From Patescibacteria group bacterium (GTDB lineage: Bacteria; Patescibacteriota; Patescibacteriia; 2-12-FULL-60-25): a DNA stretch of 64,000 nucleotides. The position numbers and the translations under genes are program-made. The DNA is taken from contig JBPOJM010000007.1 of NCBI GenBank assembly GCA_052033585.1, positions 9,187 through 73,186 on the forward strand, written 5' to 3'. Positions 1-63,665 of this stretch are shown piece by piece (the stretch's first letter is position 1; the number at the start of each line of letters is the position of its first letter). The notes below the pieces were generated by a model, which saw only the letters and a program-made list of their open reading frames with translations, ran no database searches and was not told where the DNA came from.

Positions 1-3000
1 TGTGAACGACGCATGCGATACGGCTCTGACCCACATTCCTCTGGCACAATCCCGACATCCCACAAAAACTTGTGCCAAAAACGCGAATACAATAAGTGAA
101 GGGTCGTATGCTCCATCCCCCCGTTATACAAATCCACGGGCATCCAATATTTCAATGCCTCCGATGAAGCCAACTCTTTGTCATTATGTGGATCACAGTA
201 TCGCAAGAAATACCAACTCGACCCGGCCCAATTCGGCATGGTATCCGTTTCACGCATCGCGGGGCCTCCGCACTCCGGACACGTTGTCTCAACCCAGTCG
301 CGAATCTTCGCAAGTGGTGACTCCCCCGTATCGGTCGGCTCATACGCCTCAACCTCCGGCAACTTCAAAGGAAGCTGATTCTCTGGTACAGGAATCCAGC
401 CCGTGTTTTTACTCGTAAGGACTTCACGAATAATCTCAGGATGATCACTCAAAAGAAAATGCCCCTTCGCTCCAAGAGATTTTATGTACCAACCATTCGG
501 AATAAAGGCGTGCGATTGTTTTGGAATACGTGAATCATCGTCAGAAACCAAAACCACTCCACTACCAACGAGCGAATCAATTCGTTTCCAATCAATCGGT
601 CGATCCCAGATTTCACGGAGACATCTATAATCACGATCCGGACGAACCGCCTGCTTCTCTGCCCAGTCTTCATCAGAAATAGGTCCAATCAAAGGGGCGA
701 CCAAATACACATGTCCAATCTTACGACCAAGGTCTTGCACCAGATTAACAGCCACTAGTCCGCCAAGACTATGCCCAACAATCACATCGTCTTCGCCAAA
801 TCCCTCGGCCAATGGTCGCAAAACACTCATCCACTCGTCATACTTTGGAGCTTTCGGATTCGGCAAGCTTGGAACAAACACCTCAAACCCTTGTTTTTCC
901 AAGGCGCACTTTAAAGCAGGAAGCCAATTCTTATTAGCATTCGCGCCTGTTCCATGAATAAGCAAAGCCTTCTGCTTTTTCTTGGCACACGCCCCGCAAT
1001 GCACCAGCGGAATCGGTTCTCCCCAATAGCGTTGACGAGAAAACACCCAATCACGCAAACGATACGTCGACATACCTTTCCCGCTCCCACGCTCTTCCAA
1101 CCAAGACACGACTTCCTCTTTCGCTTTCCAGGTCGGCGCTCCATCCAAAAATCCAGAGTTCATGGCATGCCCCTCTCCTGTCCAGCACGCATGCACAACA
1201 TCAACGCCAAGATGGCCATAGGCTCCCGCACTCGCACCGGCTGCTTCCATCGGACTCCGTTCGACAACAGGGGGACCCTGCACAACAGGTCGAATCGGTA
1301 ACCCAAACGTCTTCGCAAACGCATAATCACGTTCATCATGAGCGGGCACCGCCATCACTGCCCCCGTTCCATACCCCGCCAACACATAATCCGAAATCCA
1401 AACTGGCACGCGCTCCCCATTCACGGGATTCACTGCAAACACCCCCGGCAAGCGCACCCCCGTCTTCTCCCCTTCCCCCGTCCGTTCCTCCTCAGATTTC
1501 TTACTTACTTTTTCAATATACCCTTGTACATTTTCCCACCCCTCTTGAACTTTAAGCTTTTGTACAAGCTCATGTTCCGGCGCGAGTGTCACATACGTCA
1601 CCCCAAAAATCGTATCAGGACGCGTCGTAAACACCTTCAGCTCATAGGAACACAACTCGGTCAGAGTACGCGTAAGCGGTCCCAATTCAACATGAACGGA
1701 TTCTTCCTCCGTCTGATCAACAACGTATTTATTATTGGCCGCGACTCGATACAATCCACGTACCGGAAAATAGATATCCATCTCCCCCTTGCGCTCAGTC
1801 GTCAAAACGATCTGGCGTTTATTCTCTGCCATCTCTTCGGTTCCATCTGGCAAGCGCAACGCCGTCACATCCAACCAATGGCCTGTAACCTCCCCACCAT
1901 GCTTTTCAGCAATCCCACGATAAAACGCATCCATCGCTTTTGCCTTCTCTTCCTGCGTCATCGACGCCTCATCACGTCCCCCCAGAGCATTACGTTTTGG
2001 CGTCGCAACATTCAACTTCTCTCCTGCGATAAACAACCCCGTATCCATACCCAAAATGGGCAGATCTACCATCTGGGCATAGGCAGCCGCTTTAGCACGC
2101 GCATTTTCACGCATGTCATCTCCTTCTTTCACGTCTTGCTCCTCTAAACCAAGATCCGCAGGAGACAACACCTCAAGTCCAGGCAACGTTGCTCCCAGCA
2201 GCTTCTTCACACGTGCAAGTTTGCTTTTATTATTGGTCGCGACCAACACCCGCTCAAACTTTGGAATCCGAAACACAATCTCCGCGCCTTCACTTTTCCC
2301 AATCCAATTCACCTGCTGCGACTTAATCTTGTCGAGATAATCAACCTTATCTAAATCCGTTAACAACCGTTGCGCATAATCCGTGATCCGAATCATCCAT
2401 TGCTCTTTCTCACGCTTCTCAACCTCCGTTCCACAGCGTTCACATACACCTCCCTGTGCCTCTTCATTTGCAAGTCCAATCTTATCTTTCGGACACCAAT
2501 TAATCGTCGATGACGCCTTATACGCCATCCCGTATTTAAAAAATTGCAAGAACTGCCACTGCGTCCATTTAAAATAGGCCGGATCCGTTGTATTAATTTC
2601 CCTCGACCAATCAAACCCGAACCCCAACGATTTTATCTGCCGCGTAAAATTCCCTACATTCTTCGCCGTGGCATCCACCGGCTTCACCTTGTTCTTGATC
2701 GCATAATTCTCCGTTGGCAACCCAAACGCATCCCATCCAATTGGGTAAAGAACATTCTTCCCCTCCATACGCTGCTTGCGCGTCGCAATATCAATGGCCG
2801 TATACGATCGCGGATGCCCCACATGCAACCCATCCCCCGACGGATACGGAAATTCAATAAGTCCGTAAAACTTAGTATCGCGTATCGAGTATCCAGTATC
2901 ACGTATGGAAGCGGCTTCAGCTCCAGCCTCGTTCTGACGCTGGATACTCTCCGTCTCCGGCTGCTTTGCCGAATAGGTTCCTTCTTCTTGCCAAGCTTTC

Positions 3001-3041
3001 TGCCATTTAGCCTCCATGTCATGAATTGGGCGCGGTTGCAT
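1..3041 (-). CDS. leuS: leucyl-tRNA synthetase, 3'-truncated by window edge, with two extra inserted modules
   Basis: Absent from the ORF track because it has no in-window stop. My reverse-strand translation from ATG 3041-3039 gives MQPRPIHDMEAKWQKAWQEEGTY... It contains 'PYPSGDGLHVGHP' (HIGH region), 'VFTTRPDTIFGVTYVTLAPEH' (CP1 editing domain), 'AVPAHDERDYAFA', 'RQRYWGEPIP', 'CPECGG' and 'NGGMEHTTLHLLYSRFWHKF'. The frame stays open to position 1. Confidence 0.9.
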   Translation of the reverse strand, partial: MQPRPIHDMEAKWQKAWQEEGTYSAKQPETESIQRQNEAGAEAASIRDTGYSIRDTKFYGLIEFPYPSGDGLHVGHPRSYTAIDIATRKQRMEGKNVLYPIGWDAFGLPTENYAIKNKVKPVDATAKNVGNFTRQIKSLGFGFDWSREINTTDPAYFKWTQWQFLQFFKYGMAYKASSTINWCPKDKIGLANEEAQGGVCERCGTEVEKREKEQWMIRITDYAQRLLTDLDKVDYLDKIKSQQVNWIGKSEGAEIVFRIPKFERVLVATNNKSKLARVKKLLGATLPGLEVLSPADLGLEEQDVKEGDDMRENARAKAAAYAQMVDLPILGMDTGLFIAGEKLNVATPKRNALGGRDEASMTQEEKAKAMDAFYRGIAEKHGGEVTGHWLDVTALRLPDGTEEMAENKRQIVLTTERKGEMDIYFPVRGLYRVAANNKYVVDQTEEESVHVELGPLTRTLTELCSYELKVFTTRPDTIFGVTYVTLAPEHELVQKLKVQEGWENVQGYIEKVSKKSEEERTGEGEKTGVRLPGVFAVNPVNGERVPVWISDYVLAGYGTGAVMAVPAHDERDYAFAKTFGLPIRPVVQGPPVVERSPMEAAGASAGAYGHLGVDVVHACWTGEGHAMNSGFLDGAPTWKAKEEVVSWLEERGSGKGMSTYRLRDWVFSRQRYWGEPIPLVHCGACAKKKQKALLIHGTGANANKNWLPALKCALEKQGFEVFVPSLPNPKAPKYDEWMSVLRPLAEGFGEDDVIVGHSLGGLVAVNLVQDLGRKIGHVYLVAPLIGPISDEDWAEKQAVRPDRDYRCLREIWDRPIDWKRIDSLVGSGVVLVSDDDSRIPKQSHAFIPNGWYIKSLGAKGHFLLSDHPEIIREVLTSKNTGWIPVPENQLPLKLPEVEAYEPTDTGESPLAKIRDWVETTCPECGGPAMRETDTMPNWAGSSWYFLRYCDPHNDKELASSEALKYWMPVDLYNGGMEHTTLHLLYSRFWHKFLWDVGIVPEECGSEPYRMRRS

Positions 3042-7306: not shown

Positions 7307-7499
7307 CCGTCATTCCGAAAGAGGAGTCCGACGACGACGGAGGAATCTCGACCGGAAACAGGTAGCCAGCGAACCCAACCCCTCCAACTCCCCCCGCATA
7401 ATGGTGCTGGGCAGGCTCTTGTCAGGGGAGAGCATAAAAAGAGGATACCTGCTTCGCTGCGAGATCCCTCACTGCGTATGACTCCGTTCGGGATGACGG
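7307..7499. repeat. MITE/REP-like element bounded by inverted CCGTCATYCCGAA ends
   Basis: ccgtcattccgaa (7307-7319) is the inverted match of ttcgggatgacgg (7487-7499). The right part (7452-7499) belongs to the repeat family also seen at 42494-42577 and 45793-45902. Confidence 0.5.
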
Positions 7500-24782: not shown

Positions 24783-25788
24783 TGCTGACTAGCATTCTGC
24801 AAACAGTAAACAAAATCAACCCATAATGGGTCGCACAATAATGTTTCACGTGAAACATTCCATCAAAATTCATCCAGAAAAAAGTAAAAAGATCGAACAC
24901 GGCACGAATCCGTTGACAGCAAACACAAACATAAAAAGTACGGCTAAACGTGGTAATGAACTAGAAGAAAATGTTTCACGTGAAACAATACTCAAACTAT
25001 TCTTGAAACAAAGCCACCACTCTCAGGAAGAAGTACGGCAAGCGTCGTATAATAATGTTTCACGTGAAACATTAAGCAGAATCACACGCCTCAGAAATTC
25101 AACCAAGAAGTCGGTAGATACTTCATGTGAAACATCTATCGACAGCCCAAACCGCCAAAATCACTGATATAAACAGATCAAATTAAAGTACGAAAGTAGG
25201 CTGTGTAATGTTTCACGTGAAACATTACACGTCGCAGCACTCAAACAATAGAACAGACGCACTGCCTTAACTGACAAGCGTCGCATAATAATGTTTCACG
25301 TGAAACATTGCGCAAAATGTCGTGCCACAGAAAGTGGGCAAGGAAATCAATGAATGTTTCACGTGAAACATACATTGATAATCTGAGGCATATGAAGCAC
25401 AGAGAAAGACGGATCGATCATATATAAAAAAGAAATAACGTAATGTTTCACGTGAAACATTACGTTACCTAAAATAAGTGATAAATTCAGATCAAAAAAT
25501 TAAATAAACTTTGAGATGAGAAAAATTCATTGTATGGAATGTCAAAAATGTTTCACGTGAAACATTGCTCCATTCTATAAACCTTGTAACTGTAATGTTT
25601 CACGTGAAACATTACAGTTACAAGAAATTACAAGCTACTTAGTATAATCAATCCATTGATTGATATCGCTCAGCTATGCCTCATGCTAGAAAATTCATCA
25701 TATGAGACTCCTTAAGTACTAAAATAATAGAAATGCGGTCAATTGTTTTAGCCATAAACGGATTGCTCTACCATGCAAACATTACATA

Positions 25789-25821
25789 CAAAAAAACAAC
25801 GGCTATTGCGTTGTTTTTTTG
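25789..25821. terminator. terminator hairpin downstream of tRNA-Ala(CGC)
   Basis: caaaaaaacaac-ggctattgc-gttgtttttttg. Confidence 0.6.
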
Positions 25822-25823
25822 TA

Positions 25824-25899
25824 TGGTGGACCGAAGGAGAGTCGAACTCCTGACCTCTGCAATGCGAATGCAGCGCTCTACCAACTGAGCTATCGGCCC
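25824..25899 (-). tRNA. tRNA-Ala (anticodon CGC), CCA encoded
   Basis: The reverse complement GGGCCGATAGCTCAGTTGGTAGAGCGCTGCATTCGCATTGCAGAGGTCAGGAGTTCGACTCTCCTTCGGTCCACCA has the G3:U70 pair and a TTCGCAT anticodon loop. Confidence 0.9.
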
Positions 25900-26120
25900 A
25901 AAATTTTTCAAAATGTTTCACGTGAAACATTGCTCAACTTATAGCACTCGACAGGGGATCTAAGCTAATGTTTCACGTGAAACATTAGCTTATGTACTGT
26001 ATAACACTTTATTCTGAGAATTTGCTGCATTTGCTCAAAAAATCTGACTACCACCATCGACGCATGAGCAATGTTTCACGTGAAACATTAACAAGAATAT
26101 CCCATGAATACCACCAAAAT

Positions 26121-26166: not shown

Positions 26167-26241
26167 TGGCGTTCCCAAGTGGAATCGAACCACTATTTAG
26201 GGCTTAGGAGTCCCTCGTTCTATCCATTGAACTATGGGAAC
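26167..26241 (-). tRNA. tRNA-Arg (anticodon CCU), CCA encoded
   Basis: The reverse complement GTTCCCATAGTTCAATGGATAGAACGAGGGACTCCTAAGCCCTAAATAGTGGTTCGATTCCACTTGGGAACGCCA has a CTCCTAA anticodon loop. There is one A.G mismatch at the 31-39 pair. Confidence 0.8.
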
Positions 26242-27749: not shown

Positions 27750-27820
27750 CGCCCATTACCATAATCTAGAAACGCAAAACGCAAAAGCCCCTGACTCGTA
27801 ACATAAAATCATCTGCCCAG

Positions 27821-28008
27821 CTCCCCTCATCTAAGGCTCGCATGCCTGTGGCTTTTTTATTCCGACAGCTGTCTGAGCAAGGAGATGATGCTGTTGGGGT
27901 CGAGTTGCGGTTGCAGGCTTCGGCTCCGGTCCACCATAAGTACTACAGGTGGAATGCGAGTTCTGTAGGAATAAAAAAGCCACAGGCATGCGAGCCCATC
28001 GCCTAAAT
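27821..28008. repeat. foldback element A1: conserved flanks, 34-bp locus-specific inverted repeats, conserved core
   Basis: IR-left at 27835-27868 (ggctcgcatgcctgtggcttttttattccgacag) pairs with IR-right at 27963-27996 with one mismatch. The core at 27869-27962 is shared with the 33.0 and 42.3 kb copies. The right flank is CATCGCCTA. Confidence 0.8.
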
Positions 28009-32686: not shown

Positions 32687-32761
<75 letters not shown>

Positions 32762-32828
32762 GACGAGTGAGCGTACAAAAGCCTAAAGCTTTCGGTTCCG
32801 AACGAGGAGGCGCGGCACGAAGTACCAC

Positions 32829-32854
32829 GCCCTGTCGCTCGCGAGCGACAGGGC
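32829..32854. repeat. 26-bp perfect palindrome of the GTCGCTCGCGAGCGAC type
   Basis: gccctgtcgctcgcgagcgacagggc has the same central motif as the hairpins inside the 45793-45902 repeat. Confidence 0.6.
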
Positions 32855-32968
32855 ACGCCACATCGTCCATATACATACGACAGGCAACCCAATCATTCGC
32901 ACATCGAATTGTAAACGTCATGATCCTAACAAACTCCCCCCAATCCGTGAAGCCCCGGCCCATTCCCG

Positions 32969-33163
32969 CCCCCTCCTCCTCACCTAGAGCTCCGTTTGTG
33001 TGTTCTTTTTCCCCGTACTGCTGTCTGAGCAAGGAGACGACACCGCTGCTCTCGATTTGCGGTTGCAGGTGTTGGCTCCGGTCCGCCACAAATAAAGCTC
33101 CTCGGCGGAATGCGAGTTCAGTACGGGGAAAAAGAACAAACAAACGGAGCCCATCGCCTATAT
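32969..33163. repeat. foldback element A2
   Basis: IR-left at 32989-33020 (gctccgtttgtgtgttctttttccccgtactg) pairs with IR-right at 33119-33150 with one mismatch. The core at 33021-33118 is in the same orientation as A1. The flanks are ccccctcctcctcacctaga on the left and ccatcgcctatat on the right. Confidence 0.8.
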
Positions 33164-40112: not shown

Positions 40113-41516
40113 CTAAGCGGTAGTGTTATATAACCGCTCTAAAATGAGCGTGATATCCCGCTTCACCTGTGTATCATCCTGGATAAGCTGTGCAATTTTT
40201 TCACACGCATGCATAGCGGTTGTGTGATCGCGTCCACCTAAATGATCCCCAATGGTGGGGAAAGAACATTTTGTTTCCTCACGCAAAAGATACATCGCGA
40301 TTTGGCGCGGTAAAGCAAACCGTTGTTCGCGACTTTTGCCTACGATCTGCTCATGACTAATGTCGTAGTGTCCACGCACCGCCTCAATGAGTAAGCGTGG
40401 GCTTACCGTTCGTTTAGTGATCGTAGGGGTAAAGCTCTGGAGTAGAGGCTGAATCGAGCTCGCGCTTGGCTGAATATTTTTAAACTGGTGGTAGGCGATA
40501 ATCTTGTTGAGTGCGCCTTCAAGCTCGCGGATATTGGATTGAATGGCTCCCGCCATCATGTGCAGGATCTCGGTCGATAGTGGGTAGTTCTTTTCTCGAG
40601 CCTTTGCCTCTAAAATCGCCACACGTGTCTCAAAATCCGGTTTTGTAATATCAATCATCATGCCCCATTCAAAGCGCGACTGAAGGCGGCTTTCTAGGGT
40701 CTGGATATCTTTAGGTGGGCGGTCAGATGCAATCACGATCTGCTTATTGTTCTGGTGGAGGGTATTAAAGGTGTGAAAAAATTCTTCCTGTGTTCCTTCT
40801 TTTCCAGTTAAAAACTGGATATCATCAATCAAAAGCACGTCAACTGTTCGATAACGATCCTTAAAATCCCCTGCGGCTCCGCTGCGCACCGCTTGGATAA
40901 ACTCATTTGTAAACCGTTCACAGGTTACATACTGTACCTTGGCATTTGTATTATCCCGACACACATGGTGCCCAATCGCCTGGAGTAAGTGCGTCTTTCC
41001 CATCCCCACCCCTCCGTAAATAAACAAGGGGTTATATGCTTGTCCCGGCTTCGCTGACACGGCCATACAGGCCGCATGAGCTAATTCATTATTTTTTCCC
41101 ACAATAAACTGTGGAAAGGTGTAGCGAGGGTTAAGTCCAAGATCTGCCGCCCGCGTCGTCGGCTCAAAAGAAGATCCATCCACGCCAGGCGCTTGAAGAG
41201 GGTCGTGTTCCGAATCGGTGGAGGGAGTTGGTTCAGCTAAATGCTCAATCGGGAGCACGGTGGTGTTCCGTACCTCAACACGATAATGGATTTCTCTGAT
41301 CGGCTGTGAACAGGCGGAGCGCAATGCTTTGGCAATCGCGTCATGGTATTTGCGCTCTAGCCAAGATTTTGTAAACGTATTTGGTACAGCCACCACCACC
41401 CGTCCATTTTCGTAGGAACTGATAAAGGTGTTGCGAAACCAGGTGGTAAAATTGGCCTTGGATAAGGTGAGCTCGATCTCACCGAGGGCGGATTGCCAAA
41501 GTGCTTGCAAGTCCAT
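40113..41516 (-). CDS. dnaA: chromosomal replication initiator DnaA
   Basis: 467 aa with Walker A 'GGVGMGKTHLL', 'LLIDDIQFL', sensor motifs and the C-terminal DNA-binding 'LPRQIAMYLLRE...GGRDHTTAMHA'. Confidence 0.97.
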   Translation of the reverse strand: MDLQALWQSALGEIELTLSKANFTTWFRNTFISSYENGRVVVAVPNTFTKSWLERKYHDAIAKALRSACSQPIREIHYRVEVRNTTVLPIEHLAEPTPSTDSEHDPLQAPGVDGSSFEPTTRAADLGLNPRYTFPQFIVGKNNELAHAACMAVSAKPGQAYNPLFIYGGVGMGKTHLLQAIGHHVCRDNTNAKVQYVTCERFTNEFIQAVRSGAAGDFKDRYRTVDVLLIDDIQFLTGKEGTQEEFFHTFNTLHQNNKQIVIASDRPPKDIQTLESRLQSRFEWGMMIDITKPDFETRVAILEAKAREKNYPLSTEILHMMAGAIQSNIRELEGALNKIIAYHQFKNIQPSASSIQPLLQSFTPTITKRTVSPRLLIEAVRGHYDISHEQIVGKSREQRFALPRQIAMYLLREETKCSFPTIGDHLGGRDHTTAMHACEKIAQLIQDDTQVKRDITLILERLYNTTA

Positions 41517-41563
41517 AGGAGTATATGCTGGATACTTTCAATCCTGCATCACATTGTCAAACA

Positions 41564-41601
41564 TGTGGATAACCCGTGGAAAAACCAACAGTTTATCCAC
41601 A
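41564..41601. promoter_or_regulatory. two perfect DnaA boxes (oriC / dnaA promoter region)
   Basis: TGTGGATAA at 41564-41572 and TTATCCACA at 41593-41601, in the dnaA-rpmH divergent intergenic region. Confidence 0.75.
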
Positions 41602-41680
41602 GCTTATCAAAAACCATGGGGATTTTGCGGGGAGAGACCTTGCCAAAACCAAATAAATATCCTAGAGTACTCCCATTCTT

Positions 41681-41845
41681 ATGGCTACCAAACGAACCTA
41701 CCAGCCCAAAAAGCGTCGACGCGCTCGCGTTCACGGGTTTCGTGCACGCATGCAAACCGCTGACGGTCGCGAAGTTCTCTCTCGCCGTCGCGCCAAAGGC
41801 CGCAAACGCATCGCCATTAAAACGGCCAAGGTCAACAAGCGTTAA
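41681..41845 (+). CDS. rpmH: 50S ribosomal protein L34
   Basis: Too short for the track. My translation is [54 protein letters not shown]. Confidence 0.93.
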
Positions 41846-41849
41846 TCCC

Positions 41850-42260
41850 GTGCTCCCACGCACCGATCGCCTGCGCCGCATGCGCGACTTCGCCCTCCTC
41901 TCCCAGAGGGGGCGCGTTGTTTTTGGCCCATTTTTCACCCTCCGCTTCCGCCCAAGCCAAGAACCTACCAAAATCGGTTTCGTTGCCAGCGCCAAAATCT
42001 TCAAAACCGCCGTCGCTCGCAACCGCGTCAAACGCCGCCTCCGCGAAGCTCTCGGAGTCGTCCGCCCCTTCTGGCCATTAAAGATGGATATCCTCTTTAT
42101 CGCTAAGCCCGAAGCCACGACCACGGAATACCAGGCTCTCGTCGCCTCCGTAAAACGCGCCTTCGAAAAAATCCCCGAAGCCCTCAAAGCACCTCCAACC
42201 CCCCGCAAAAACCCCAAAGCCCGCCGCAAAACGTCGGTTGTATATAAGGGCGGGTCGTGA
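41850..42260 (+). CDS. rnpA: RNase P protein component
   Basis: In frame within track ORF 41493..42260. The GTG at 41850 gives 'LPRTDRLRRMRDFALLSQRGR...AVARNRVKRRLREA', which contains the RNR motif. It follows rpmH. Confidence 0.85.
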   Translation: MLPRTDRLRRMRDFALLSQRGRVVFGPFFTLRFRPSQEPTKIGFVASAKIFKTAVARNRVKRRLREALGVVRPFWPLKMDILFIAKPEATTTEYQALVASVKRAFEKIPEALKAPPTPRKNPKARRKTSVVYKGGS

Positions 42261-42274
42261 TCCCTAATCGTTAC

Positions 42275-42472
42275 CCCCTCCTCGACTCCTCTAGGGCTCC
42301 GACACAAGTGCTATTTTTGATCAACTGAACTCGCATTCCGCCTTTATTGTGCTCTTTGTGACGGACCGGAGCTAAGTCCTGCAACCGCAAATCGAGTGCA
42401 ACGGCCTTAGCTCCTTGCTCGGACAGCAGTTGATCAAAAATAGCACTTGTGTCGGAGCCCATCGCCTATTCC
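42275..42472. repeat. foldback element A3, with core inverted relative to A1/A2
   Basis: IR-left at 42294-42327 (gggctccgacacaagtgctatttttgatcaactg) pairs perfectly with IR-right at 42427-42460. The core at 42328-42426 is the reverse complement of the A1/A2 cores, while the outer flanks (ccccctcctc..ctctag on the left, catcgcctatt on the right) keep the A2 orientation. Confidence 0.8.
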
Positions 42473-42493
42473 TCTTTATTTCCCGAAGGGGCT

Positions 42494-42577
42494 ACCCGTT
42501 CCGCTGCGAGATCTCTCGACTGCGCCACGTCGTTCGCGAATGACGTGGCTGCGTATAACTTCGCTCGAGATGACAGG
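42494..42577. repeat. REP-like repeat family B, copy 2
   Basis: acccgttccgctgcgagatctctcgact-[gccacgtcgttcgcgaatgacgtggc]-tgcgtataacttcgctcgagatgacagg. Confidence 0.7.
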
Positions 42578-42586
42578 CAAAATAGT

Positions 42587-42844
42587 ATGCGCCTCTTTTT
42601 TCAATACCTAATACGTTTGTATCAAAACACCCTGTCTTTAGACCACGGGCCTCTTCGTCGTTTCACGACCCAACCAAGATGCAAATTCCACCCCACCTGC
42701 TCCCAGTACGCCTACGACGCCATTGGTCGTTTTGGAGTATTCAATGGCGTACATCTCGCCATAAAACGTATCTTCCGCTGCCATCCCTGGACGTTAGGAG
42801 GAATTGACCCGATTCCAGAAAAACTTGTAAAAAAATATAAATAA
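42587..42844 (+). CDS. yidD: membrane protein insertion efficiency factor YidD
   Basis: Inside track ORF 42449..42844. 'CKFHPTCSQYAYDAIGRFGVFNGVHLAIKRIFRCHPW..GGIDPIP' is the YidD signature. Confidence 0.9.
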   Translation: MRLFFQYLIRLYQNTLSLDHGPLRRFTTQPRCKFHPTCSQYAYDAIGRFGVFNGVHLAIKRIFRCHPWTLGGIDPIPEKLVKKYK

Positions 42845-45750: not shown

Positions 45751-45792
45751 ACACCACCCCTTCCGAGGCGGCGTTTGTTTCTCTCTGATAAT

Positions 45793-45902
45793 ACCCGTTC
45801 CGCTGCGAGATCCCTCACTCCGACACGTCATTCGCGAACGACGTGTCTTCGTATGACTTCGTTCGGGACACGTCGCTCGCGAGCGACGTGTCGGGATGAC
45901 GG
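45793..45902. repeat. REP-like repeat family B, copy 3 (two internal 26-bp palindromes)
   Basis: acccgttccgctgcgagatccctcact... contains gacacgtcattcgcgaacgacgtgtc (45822-47) and gacacgtcgctcgcgagcgacgtgtc (45867-92), and ends in gggatgacgg. Confidence 0.7.
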
Positions 45903-51131: not shown

Positions 51132-52208
51132 ATGGCAAAAAAATCAGAACAAGACGGCCGCTCTTTGGCCGTCAAAACCGCAATCGATCAAATCAAGGAA
51201 AAATTTGGTGATGGCTCCATCATGCGTCTTGGTGAAGCTCGTAAGATGCAGGTCGAAGCCATACCAACTGGTTGCTTCTCTCTGGATATGGCACTCGGCG
51301 TCCTCGGATTCCCTCGTGGCCGTATTATCGAAGTCTACGGTCCGGAAGCCTCCGGAAAAACCACCCTTGCCCAACACGTTATTGCTGAAGCGCAAAAAGC
51401 CGGTGGCGTCGCCGCCTTCGTCGATGCCGAACACGCTCTCGACCCAGACTACGCCCGCAAAATCGGGGTAAATATAGACGAGCTTCTCATTTCTCAGCCA
51501 GACACCGGTGAACAGGCTCTCGATATCGTCGAAACCTTAGTTCGTTCCAATGCCGTTGACGTCGTCGTGGTCGACTCTGTCGCGGCGCTGACGCCTAAGG
51601 CAGAAATCGAAGGCGATATGGGAGATCAGCATATGGGACTTCAAGCCCGTCTCATGTCCCAAGCTCTGCGCAAGCTCACGGCCATTATTTCCCGTTCCAA
51701 AACCACTGTTATCTTCATCAACCAAATTCGCCAAAAGATCGGTATTGTCTTCGGTAATCCAGAGACCACGCCTGGTGGCAATGCGCTCAAGTTCTACTGT
51801 TCCGTGCGTGTCGAAGTCCGTCGCTCTGCTCAAATAAAAATGGGGGAAAAGATCATCGGGAACCGAGTCAAGGTAAAGATCGTAAAAAACAAAGTAGCTG
51901 CCCCCTTTCGCACCTGTGAATTTGACATCATGTATAACGAAGGGATCTCCGTATCTGGTGACTTGTTGGATGCCGGAGTCGAGCTAGGTGTGATCGCAAA
52001 GAGCGGAAATACGTACAGTTTTGAATCAGAAAAACTGGGTGTCGGTCGCGAAGCGGCAAAGAGCACGCTGCGCGAACGTCCAGATCTTCTTAAGCAAATC
52101 CGTGAAAAATGTATTGCAACCTATCAAGCCCGTGAAGCCTCAGAAGGTGGATTATCCGTCGCTCCACGTCCTCCCGCAGAGGACGATGAAGCCCCTCCAG
52201 AAGAGTAG
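51132..52208 (+). CDS. recA: recombinase RecA
   Basis: '[16 protein letters not shown]', '[10 protein letters not shown]' and 'VVVDSVAAL' are canonical RecA motifs. Confidence 0.97.
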
Positions 52209-62299: not shown

Positions 62300-62427
62300 C
62301 AAGGAGCGTTTAGCTAAAACGTCAAAACCCCGCGCCAGGTCGTACACGTTTCAGTGTGTACACCCAGCGCGAGGCCAGTCAGTTCCGAGTGAGAAGATGC
62401 AGCTCAGGATTAGCTCTGTGCAGCGTT

Positions 62428-62509
62428 CTCCCCTTCACATTCCTCTTTCGAGAAACACGCAGGGGGGAGAAGGACAGTCAAACGGACACGTCCTTGTCAG
62501 AGGTGGGGG
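62428..62509 (-). promoter_or_regulatory. cassette leader copy L1 (no intact ORF follows)
   Basis: The minus strand reads ...ctgacaaggacgtgtccgtttgactgtccttctcccccctgcgtgtttctcgaaagaggaatgtgaaggggagaa. It is homologous to L2 and L3 and starts right after the stop of the 62510 gene. Confidence 0.6.
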
Positions 62510-63037
62510 TCAGTTGGGGAAGGGGGTGTCGGCGTTCGGCTGGGGCCAGTCGAGCTCACCCAGGATGATCTCGTCGCCGAGCAGGCTCGAACGCAGCTTG
62601 AAGATCACGCCCATGGCCTGCATGTCCAGGCCGAAGGTCAGGACTTCGCAGTACGCCGGCGACGGCGTGTCTCTGAGATCCTGCGTGTGGTCCGAGGTCT
62701 CCTTCTGGAACGCGCCTGCGACGAAGTTCGCGAAGGCGAGGAGTTCGACCGCGTCGTCGCTGTAGATGAGTAGATCGCACGCGGTCTCCCGCGTCACGAT
62801 TTCCTCCATCCTGGCGAGACGGGAGGCATCATCACCCCCCATCCCCTCCAGGCCGTAGGGCTGCAGGGGAGACACTCGCTCGAGGTCGCCTCCGGCCGCC
62901 ACCATGGCCTTCGCCCCATCTTCAGCGAGAACGAAGTGGATGTCCTTCAGGTGGAGGGTGAGAAAATCGACAATTTTCGGAATCAAGGCGGTCTCCTTTG
63001 TGATGGCCACATTGGCCGTTGAAGCACGTGAGCTCAT
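62510..63037 (-). CDS. cassette protein P2 (paralog of P1 and probably P3), function unknown
   Basis: Track ORF 62510..63043. The ATG at 63037 corresponds to the conserved leader ATG. 'ACDLLIYSDDAVELLAFANFVAGAF' aligns with P1 'ACVVIYDTHLVKLAEFAQYVAAS'. Confidence 0.65.
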   Translation of the reverse strand: MSSRASTANVAITKETALIPKIVDFLTLHLKDIHFVLAEDGAKAMVAAGGDLERVSPLQPYGLEGMGGDDASRLARMEEIVTRETACDLLIYSDDAVELLAFANFVAGAFQKETSDHTQDLRDTPSPAYCEVLTFGLDMQAMGVIFKLRSSLLGDEIILGELDWPQPNADTPFPN

Positions 63038-63133
63038 GCTCACCCCTTCACATTCCTCTTTCGAGAAACACGCAGGGGAGAGAAGGACAGCGTAACAGCA
63101 TGTCCTTGAGAGAGGTGAGGCAGGTCGTATGCA
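63038..63133 (-). promoter_or_regulatory. cassette leader copy L2
   Basis: The minus strand reads ...caaggacatgctgttacgctgtccttctctcccctgcgtgtttctcgaaagaggaatgtgaaggggtgagcATG. It fills the whole gap between the P1 stop and the P2 start. Confidence 0.65.
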
Positions 63134-63520
63134 TCATTCTGATAAGATAGCGGTCTCGATTTGGAGCTTCGCCTGGCCATCGCAGAGCATCAGCGCGAGC
63201 ACGCTGAACGGCCCCAGCTCCAGCGGCTGCCCCGTACTGTCCGACGCGCAGCAGCTCGCGGCCACGTACTGCGCGAATTCTGCGAGCTTCACGAGGTGCG
63301 TATCGTAGATCACGACACAGGCCCCGTCAGAAGCGGGGAGCAGCCGCTCCAACTCCATCAGGGCGGCGGCGTGATCAGCCCCCATGCGGGTCAGCGGATA
63401 AGGCCGCACCTCCCAGAGATTTTGCTCGTGCCACCAGAGTACTTCCATGACCTGATCGGCGGTATCGACCGCCAAGAACCAGAGCCCGGGGCCTTTGGCA
63501 AGATAGTCGCGGATGTTCAT
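63134..63520 (-). CDS. cassette protein P1, function unknown
   Basis: Track ORF of 128 aa with SD ggaggaagggg. It aligns with P2 over about 90 aa (NIRDYL/KIVDFL ... LWEVRPYPL/LERVSPLQP ...). Confidence 0.65.
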   Translation of the reverse strand: MNIRDYLAKGPGLWFLAVDTADQVMEVLWWHEQNLWEVRPYPLTRMGADHAAALMELERLLPASDGACVVIYDTHLVKLAEFAQYVAASCCASDSTGQPLELGPFSVLALMLCDGQAKLQIETAILSE

Positions 63521-63665
63521 GATCCCCTTCCTCCATTGTTGTGGCCACGTAGGCCGTTGATGTTGGTAAGCTCATGCTCACCCCTTCATATTCCTCTTTC
63601 GAGAAACACGCAGGGGAGAGAAGGACAGCGTAACAGCATGTCCTTGTCAGAGGGGAGGAAGTCGG
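63521..63665 (-). promoter_or_regulatory. cassette leader copy L3 plus out-of-frame remnant of the conserved N-terminal codons
   Basis: Same leader as L2. The conserved ATG (63578-63576) opens 'MSLPTSTAYVATTMEEGD', homologous to the P2 N-terminus 'MSSRASTANVAITKE' but in a different frame from P1. Confidence 0.6.

Follow-up and report, generated by a model that had tools for sequence, protein, structure and literature searches.

Three copies of a hairpin-shaped element of about 165 nt (A1, A2 and A3) were found by a repeat search of the 64,000-nt stretch of Patescibacteria DNA analyzed here, hereafter the window. In each copy two near-perfect inverted-repeat arms of 34 nt enclose a conserved core of 94-99 nt, and short asymmetric flanks lie outside the arms. 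A3 is located between rnpA, the gene for the RNase P protein (41565-42260, plus strand), and yidD (42587-42844, plus strand; PF01809). Its left flank (42266-42293, plus) is a C-rich tract ending in CTAG, the type and orientation of which are kept in every copy. The left arm (42294-42327) consists of GGGCTC, 14 variable nt, a T5 run, a further variable part and CTG, and the right arm (42427-42460) is its perfect reverse complement. Between them lies the 99-nt core (42328-42426), whose canonical strand is the minus strand of the window and which contains two covarying inner helices, P2 and P3. The right flank (42461-42489, plus), ATCGCCTAT...TTCCCGAAGG, has the orientation seen in A1, A2 and all relatives. 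A second small palindromic repeat, unrelated to A3, follows directly on the right (42486-42586, plus), so that rnpA and yidD are separated by A3 and this repeat together.

A1 (27835-27996, plus; arms 27835-27868 and 27963-27996, core 27869-27962) and A2 (32987-33152, plus; arms 32989-33020 and 33119-33150, core 33021-33118) are both in what is here called the canonical orientation. A1 has polA on one side and a gene of 280 aa on the other, both on the minus strand, while A2 lies between a terminator-like hairpin that follows a minus-strand gene and a minus-strand tRNA gene. The arms of A1 and of A2 are 97% complementary in each case; those of A3 are 100% complementary over 34 nt, with a gap of 99 nt. 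The arm sequences are different in the three copies. RecA (recA, 51132-52208, plus) is the sole recombination protein found in the window.

The same layout is seen in the 16 complete copies of the family: a C-rich left flank ending in CTAG, an arm, the core, the complementary arm and the right flank. Arms are 33-35 nt long and consist of GGGCTC, about 13 variable nt, a run of five or six T, about 7 variable nt and CWG. Only the outer GGGCTC, the T5-6 run and the inner CWG are common to the loci, and about 20 of 34 arm positions vary freely; almost every copy has GGGCTC and GAGCCC at its arm ends. The core is 94-100 nt long and runs from CTGTCYGAGCAAGGAG to GGAATGCGAGTT. The right flank is ATCGCCTATATATCACAATCCAAYC, also given as ATCGCCTA(TATATCACAATCCAA). 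Variable arms together with a conserved loop and conserved outer flanks are the distinctive trait of the element.

Other repeats and motifs occur in the window. The small palindromic repeat next to A3 belongs to a second family (GGGnTACCYGTTCCGCTGCGAGATCYCTC ... CTTCGYTCGRGATGACRG, with variable inserted hairpins) found at 7439-7476, 42486-42586 and 45785-45822. It often directly adjoins the hairpin element and also lies to the right of the elements in L001, L005, L008 and L013. Short repeats of the form GTAACA, GCAACA or CGTAACA are present 35-60 nt to the left of the elements in L002, L004, L007 and L009, and at 27770-27810 in the window. The non-coding stretch at 32762-32985, between A2 and the minus-strand tRNA gene at 32690-32761, is partly conserved in nucleotide sequence in L011 and L013 (BLAST pieces 82-94% identical), and no Rfam match was found for it. 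The palindrome ATGTTTCACGTGAAACAT is present eleven times in a 1.3-kb stretch (24838-26100), interspersed with two minus-strand tRNA genes (25827-25899 and 26170-26241); we take this palindrome to match the parS consensus TGTTNCACGTGAAACA. A ParB-like Pfam match was absent from the scanned ORFs adjacent to that cluster. Close to the end of the window (62427-63661) a repeat of 51-131 nt occurs three times, with spacings of 613 and 538 nt; the 51 nt common to all three are 94-96% identical. A leucyl-tRNA synthetase ORF (3-3041, minus) also matches Ham1-like and alpha/beta-hydrolase families and could be a fusion or an artefact of a long ORF call.

DnaA-box-like motifs, TTATCCACA / TGTGGATAA, are found at about 41520-41700, between dnaA (40113-41516, minus) and rpmH-rnpA, and are seen in reverse complement in L028. 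They suggest that oriC is located in this interval. GC skew weakens near the same region, its sign being unchanged across the window.

The core of A3 and its orthologs

The orientation of the core can be followed with the motif TTGCGGTTGCAGGN5GCTCCGGTCC, for which the chance expectation in the window is 0.00. It occurs at 27905 (plus) in A1, at 33057 (plus) in A2 and at 42363-42390 on the minus strand in A3. The right-flank motif GAGCCCATCGCCTA occurs three times in the window, always on the plus strand, and the left flanks of A1, A2 and A3 each have a C-rich tract plus CTAG. Since the flanks are co-oriented and the core motif of A3 is on the opposite strand, the A3 core is inverted relative to its own flanks, as the original prediction held. 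The same prediction described the A3 core as the exact reverse complement of the A1 and A2 cores. This is correct for orientation but not for sequence identity: the three cores align only after that of A3 has been reverse-complemented, and then at 86% mean column identity.

A locus orthologous to A3 (L001) has rnpA, the element, the same second repeat and yidD. The arms share 91% identity with those in the window, and the flanks share 73-95% in direct orientation. The cores (99 nt in the window, 94 nt in L001) show 88.9% identity as reverse complements versus 55.6% when compared directly. The prediction named as a refuting result that orthologous loci in relatives never differ in orientation. 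They do differ, so this check does not refute it: the loop is reverse-complemented while the stem and flanks are unchanged, as in loop inversion. The anatomy of the element and the contrast between the orthologs are solid, and inversion of the A3 core between its arms looks real; its mechanism is one that we infer.

A perfect 34-nt inverted repeat leaves the orientation of the sequence that it encloses undecidable in a de Bruijn graph with k ≤ 35, and the A3 core could in principle have been wrongly oriented when the contig was built. Where a perfect inverted repeat is at least k-1 bases long, the k-mer sets should be identical for both orientations, so that Logan contigs (k=31) are uninformative on coexisting orientations. 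These contigs in fact break a few bases inside the perfect arm; for example, L018 starts at window position 42431. Run SRR34217543 matches the window at 100% identity over 3.4 kb. When the window RnpA and the 63-aa ORF that crosses A3 were looked up by exact sequence, no independent assembly of flipped A3 emerged; the ORF, which is specific to the flipped state, matched no other assembly. Despite these points we consider an assembly artefact quite improbable. The final k of common metagenome assemblers is 55 or more, enough to span the 34-nt arm. Other copies and alleles in independent assemblies are consistently oriented with respect to their flanks, so assemblers evidently resolve these elements. 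In practical terms, a de Bruijn assembly whose k does not exceed the arm length is unable to orient a loop of this kind. The junction that marks the state is left flank, arm and the core end AACTCGCATTCC for the inverted orientation, and left flank, arm and CTGTCCGAGC for the canonical one.

The rnpA-yidD site has been found occupied in three relatives, L001, L026 and L033, all with canonical cores. L026 was recovered from a JGI metagenome (flanks about 95-98.5% identical to the window) and L033 from JAGONX01, where RnpA is 92% identical to that of the window. Both have arm sequences unrelated to those of A3. In L026 (3064-3227, corresponding to window 42303-42451) an allele with unrelated arms takes the place of the inner arms and core, and homology stops about 9 nt inside each arm. 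The distance between rnpA and yidD is about 290-330 nt in the window (42260-42587) and the three relatives. In two other relatives (L031/L032 and L041/L042) the genes overlap or abut with no element between them; they overlap in L031 (1899-1902) and are 8 nt apart in L041 (1114-1123). The wider spacing is due to the insertion of two different repeats. With the site filled in the window, L001, L026 and L033 and empty in L031/L032 and L041/L042, the element must have been gained or lost at this site within the clade. Presence or absence at orthologous sites, a trait of mobile repeats, is thus seen at rnpA-yidD.

Fold of the element and complementarity of its arms

When the 16 complete copies are folded together with RNAalifold, a 35-bp outer helix is predicted to close a three-way junction with the two inner helices. 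P2 pairs GGAG-N-NNNNNNCC with GGNNNNNN-G-CTCC, and P3 pairs CCRCC with GGYGG. Of the 63 pairs in the consensus fold, 32 are changed on both sides, and 98.4% of cells are paired. None of 500 column shuffles reaches the observed values, and no slid register comes close. For A3 the folding energies are -90.8 and -94.6 kcal/mol for the two strands (z about -11 to -12). Six pairs covary in P2 and P3 together, where a few G·U pairs are also present if the canonical strand is read.

The arm helix is very strict in its pairing. Across the 16 copies, 26 of its 35 pairs covary with zero one-sided (G·U) changes, and there are 8 mismatches among about 544 pairs. The left and right arms are equal in length in 16 of 16 copies though the length ranges over 33-35 nt, which means that indels are mirrored between the arms. 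Both signs of copy-correction, a strictly Watson-Crick stem and mirrored multi-base and indel changes, are found in the arm helix. We infer that such covariation would be better explained if one arm is copied from the other at the DNA level than by compensatory selection on RNA through wobble intermediates. The original prediction had proposed that exchange between the arms keeps them identical, and the strict covariation, the lack of one-sided changes and the mirrored indels all agree with it.

A DNA-level correction of this kind would keep the stem (33-35 bp) perfectly complementary. Template switching during replication of the quasipalindrome is one candidate route, and RecA-dependent gene conversion of one arm by the other is a second; the RecA encoded in the window could catalyze such arm-to-arm exchange. 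The same process may occasionally yield a crossover or a double switch, which would leave the loop flipped. At A3 the flip would postdate the split from the L001 lineage and would have left arms and flanks untouched. In other systems template switching perfects stems and causes multi-base 'compensation', and rRNA histories show an enrichment of 'loop inversion only' patterns (PMC8794818). In chloroplast DNA, small inversions at hairpins are widespread (PMC7393888). Because a single inversion event has been observed, no rate can be estimated for the element described here.

Cores and arms also differ in their nearest relatives. The core of L001 is 97% identical to that of L010, and its arms have A3 as their nearest relative (91%); such mosaicism indicates exchange among copies.

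As a working guess, the element may be a hairpin that is co-transcribed in operon mRNAs and acts as a processing, stability or termination signal. Under this guess a flip would be tolerable, since the long stem is identical in either orientation. A terminator would be one possibility: in some arms, and on either strand, a T-run comes after a small hairpin, though this mini-hairpin is not conserved between copies.

Several other assignments were considered for the element and rejected. A known RNA family was not recognized: only tRNAs reach the Rfam gathering score in the window, and the best permissive match is a generic long-hairpin miRNA model (32.8 bits versus a gathering score of 105). Gene callers give ORFs of 58-63 aa on one strand of the core, but third codon positions show no excess of changes. 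Substitutions in the variable hexamers alter amino acids yet keep base pairing, early stops occur in A1 and A2, and shifts of 1-2 nt in arm length break the frame; a small protein gene was rejected on these grounds. The arms are not spacer-like copies of foreign DNA, as the A3 arm has no IMG/VR match and arms are clearly homologous between orthologs. The transcribed strand was sought from counts of G·U versus A·C, which are about 8:2 for the canonical strand in the inner helices and 5:0 for the opposite strand in the arms. As arms and inner helices contradict each other, this was dropped.

Orientation across the family

Fifteen further copies or alleles have been detected in related Patescibacteria assemblies, and all are in the canonical orientation. 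With those of the window this makes 18 distinct copies or alleles (the 16 complete copies, L026 and L033), of which 17 are canonical and one, A3, is flipped. At the A1 locus the canonical state recurs in the L013 ortholog and in seven additional contigs of other samples, five of which span the whole element. The A2 orthologs in L011 and L013 are canonical as well.

The family has been found in few genomes. A scan of species-representative genomes with a 20-base core motif yielded 12 true loci and one chance match. The 12 loci are in three MAGs: JAGOUY01, labeled Patescibacteria, and CAZTQP01 and CAZIQG01, labeled 'uncultured Gammaproteobacteria'. Despite the latter label, parts of CAZTQP01 and CAZIQG01 match the window at about 78-93% nucleotide identity. 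Homologues of the window RnpA are named Patescibacteria or Candidatus Uhrbacteria by their sources, and the family is best read as one of Uhrbacteria-like Patescibacteria. A metagenome scan for family members gave four chance matches only, and a scan of IMG/VR with the core motif gave five, again chance matches only. An nhmmer search of 235 kb contributed L026 alone as a new copy, and L033 came from a later one. On the present data the family is narrow and chromosomal. Each MAG has about 6-8 copies with the exact motif, a low number, and their positions are conserved between genomes that are 80-86% identical. Elements often begin 6-20 nt from the stop codon of the right-hand gene.

The original prediction saw in A3 an invertible switch. 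For a programmed inverton, a recombinase encoded elsewhere in the genome would recognize GGGCTC, the T-run and CWG and flip the core reversibly, and the flip would turn a promoter, a terminator or a strand-specific RNA on or off. The dimensions agree: the A3 core is a short segment bounded by 34-nt inverted repeats that are 100% complementary, and inverton segments are typically under 300 nt (PMC11602134). The difference in core orientation between A3 and L001 also agrees, as do the conserved arm ends and central T-run in all copies. A JGI contig (L027) stops at the A3 left flank, for which within-sample heterogeneity is one possible cause. However, 17 of the 18 copies or alleles share one orientation. 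Apart from GGGCTC, the T-run and CWG, most of each arm differs between loci, which would not be expected of sites for a shared invertase. Pfam matches to Resolvase, Phage_integrase or transposase families were sought in 40 window ORFs (nearly all sizeable frames), and RecA alone was found; the statement that the window has no invertase gene holds for these ORFs and for the annotated neighboring genes. The weak promoter that had been read in the core was not recovered. A scan with the sigma-70 consensus, which represents the E. coli-type only, detected no site in the core or flanks of A1, A3 or L004, and a promoter in the TATATAT of the right flank was rejected as no consensus site was found there. 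The genes next to the elements are housekeeping genes (rnpA, yidD, polA, tRNA) and not typical phase-variable genes. The core usually faces the 3' end of a convergent gene, where an outward promoter would have nothing to drive. The 17:1 ratio, the lack of a recombinase and promoter, the antiparallel placement and the housekeeping neighbors argue against regulated phase variation, and they are compatible with a low-frequency flip. A programmed inverton is thus unlikely. For example of what may be learned from A3, inverted repeats around a flipped segment are insufficient for an inverton call.

In most copies, roughly 10 of the 13 contexts that could be scored, the canonical element is antiparallel to the flanking genes. 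An exception is the rnpA-yidD locus, where the element flanks are co-directional with the genes, and the A3 flip restores the core-to-gene orientation usual in A1 and most other copies. This would be expected if orientation were selected, with a core that works on one strand only, either as RNA in a transcript or as a hairpin on the replication template. The flip of A3 would then be adaptive, giving its core the orientation to transcription or replication that is seen in A1, A2 and most copies while its flanks point the other way. The DnaA boxes next to dnaA, which put A1/A2 and A3 on opposite sides of the likely origin, are in line with this reading. On the other hand, L001, L026 and L033 keep the 'wrong' orientation at the same locus, GC skew does not change sign across the window, and the contradictory G·U versus A·C counts favor no consistent strand. 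Selection for orientation is, in our estimate, unlikely.

A related possibility is a recombination-prone hairpin element in ultra-small (CPR) bacteria whose loop orientation is heritable and reversible. Either the replication machinery itself or a recombinase that has escaped recognition, with the GGGCTC/T-run arms as its target, would set this state. We hold this to be rather unlikely as well. If it were true, a flip would change which strand displays the conserved three-way-junction core. This would affect how neighboring essential genes (rnpA-yidD) are processed or expressed, or else DNA transactions that are strand-specific. The unrelated arms at one locus in strains about 98% identical would then represent active arm diversification.

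The explanation that we favor, and consider somewhat probable, is that A1-A3 are low-copy, lineage-restricted, structured intergenic repeats with copy-corrected arms, and that A3 represents a rare and probably non-programmed flip, with no regulated switch. Some observations run against passive flipping. A recombinase could have its site in the conserved arm features (the outer GGGCTC, the central T5-6 run, the inner CWG), and the fact that the flipped A3 core is oriented to local transcription like A1 and most copies could hint at selection. Drift plus correction is also challenged by the unrelated-arm alleles at rnpA-yidD, where strains about 98% identical in the flanks show a turnover faster than predicted.

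If passive inversion is the right reading, A3 offers a clean bacterial case of a conserved, structured loop of about 99 nt flipped in a long perfect hairpin, with an ortholog that preserves the ancestral state. The stems, 34 bp long, fast-evolving and yet strictly Watson-Crick, with mirrored indels, would be a natural test case for DNA-level hairpin maintenance versus RNA-level compensatory selection.

Comparison with known systems

The family adds an undescribed structured repeat to the Patescibacteria, whose non-coding repertoire is little described. A search of the literature for Patescibacteria repeats or invertons found nothing.

Invertons, such as fimS, hin, the Mpi-controlled promoters of Bacteroides and those of the PhaseFinder type, share with A3 a segment of <300 bp within inverted repeats and the occurrence of both orientations, which are found here between orthologs. 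In contrast to invertons, no cognate invertase was found nearby (in the window), no promoter was detected and the repeat differs between loci over most of its length. One orientation is overwhelmingly dominant here, and the neighbors are housekeeping genes.

Integron attC sites are also imperfect palindromes in which structure and not sequence is conserved, and the folded single strand has a strand-specific function, as may be the case for the element. The R'' (RYYYAAC) and R' (GTTRRRY) motifs of attC are absent from the element, where the arm ends are GGGCTC and GAGCCC. There is neither an integrase nor a cassette array here, and the central region is conserved, not variable as in attC.

Dispersed, multi-copy, structured intergenic repeats of 100-250 nt, often just past the 3' ends of genes, include bcr1, ERIC/IRU, REP/BIME, Correia/NEMIS, RUP and MITEs. 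The element resembles them in these respects, and its patchy presence at a locus among relatives is a trait of dispersed repeats of the bcr1, ERIC and REP type. In the Bacillus cereus group, bcr1 also forms long hairpins with compensatory changes (PMC3184786). MITEs and REPs differ in that their terminal repeats are conserved, whereas here the arms are variable and the loop and outer flanks are conserved. The element also has a low copy number, with no target-site duplication and no partner transposase seen. Locus-specific direct repeats were not seen among the copies, and the sequence outside the arms is itself conserved.

Small inversions associated with hairpins, or loop inversions by template switching, are found in chloroplast, rRNA and miRNA sequences and in bacterial quasipalindromes. 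As in A3, the loop is flipped and the stem is unchanged (PMC7393888, PMC8794818). The stems are perfectly Watson-Crick, 'compensation' for multi-base and indel changes takes place in one step, and no dedicated enzyme is required (PMC7393888, PMC8794818). The element differs from these cases in its loop of about 99 nt, which is highly conserved and structured, in its unusually long stem of 34 bp, and in being a dispersed multi-copy family in a bacterial chromosome. The element appears to behave most like the hairpin-loop or template-switch inversions, and as a genomic object it resembles bcr1, ERIC and REP.
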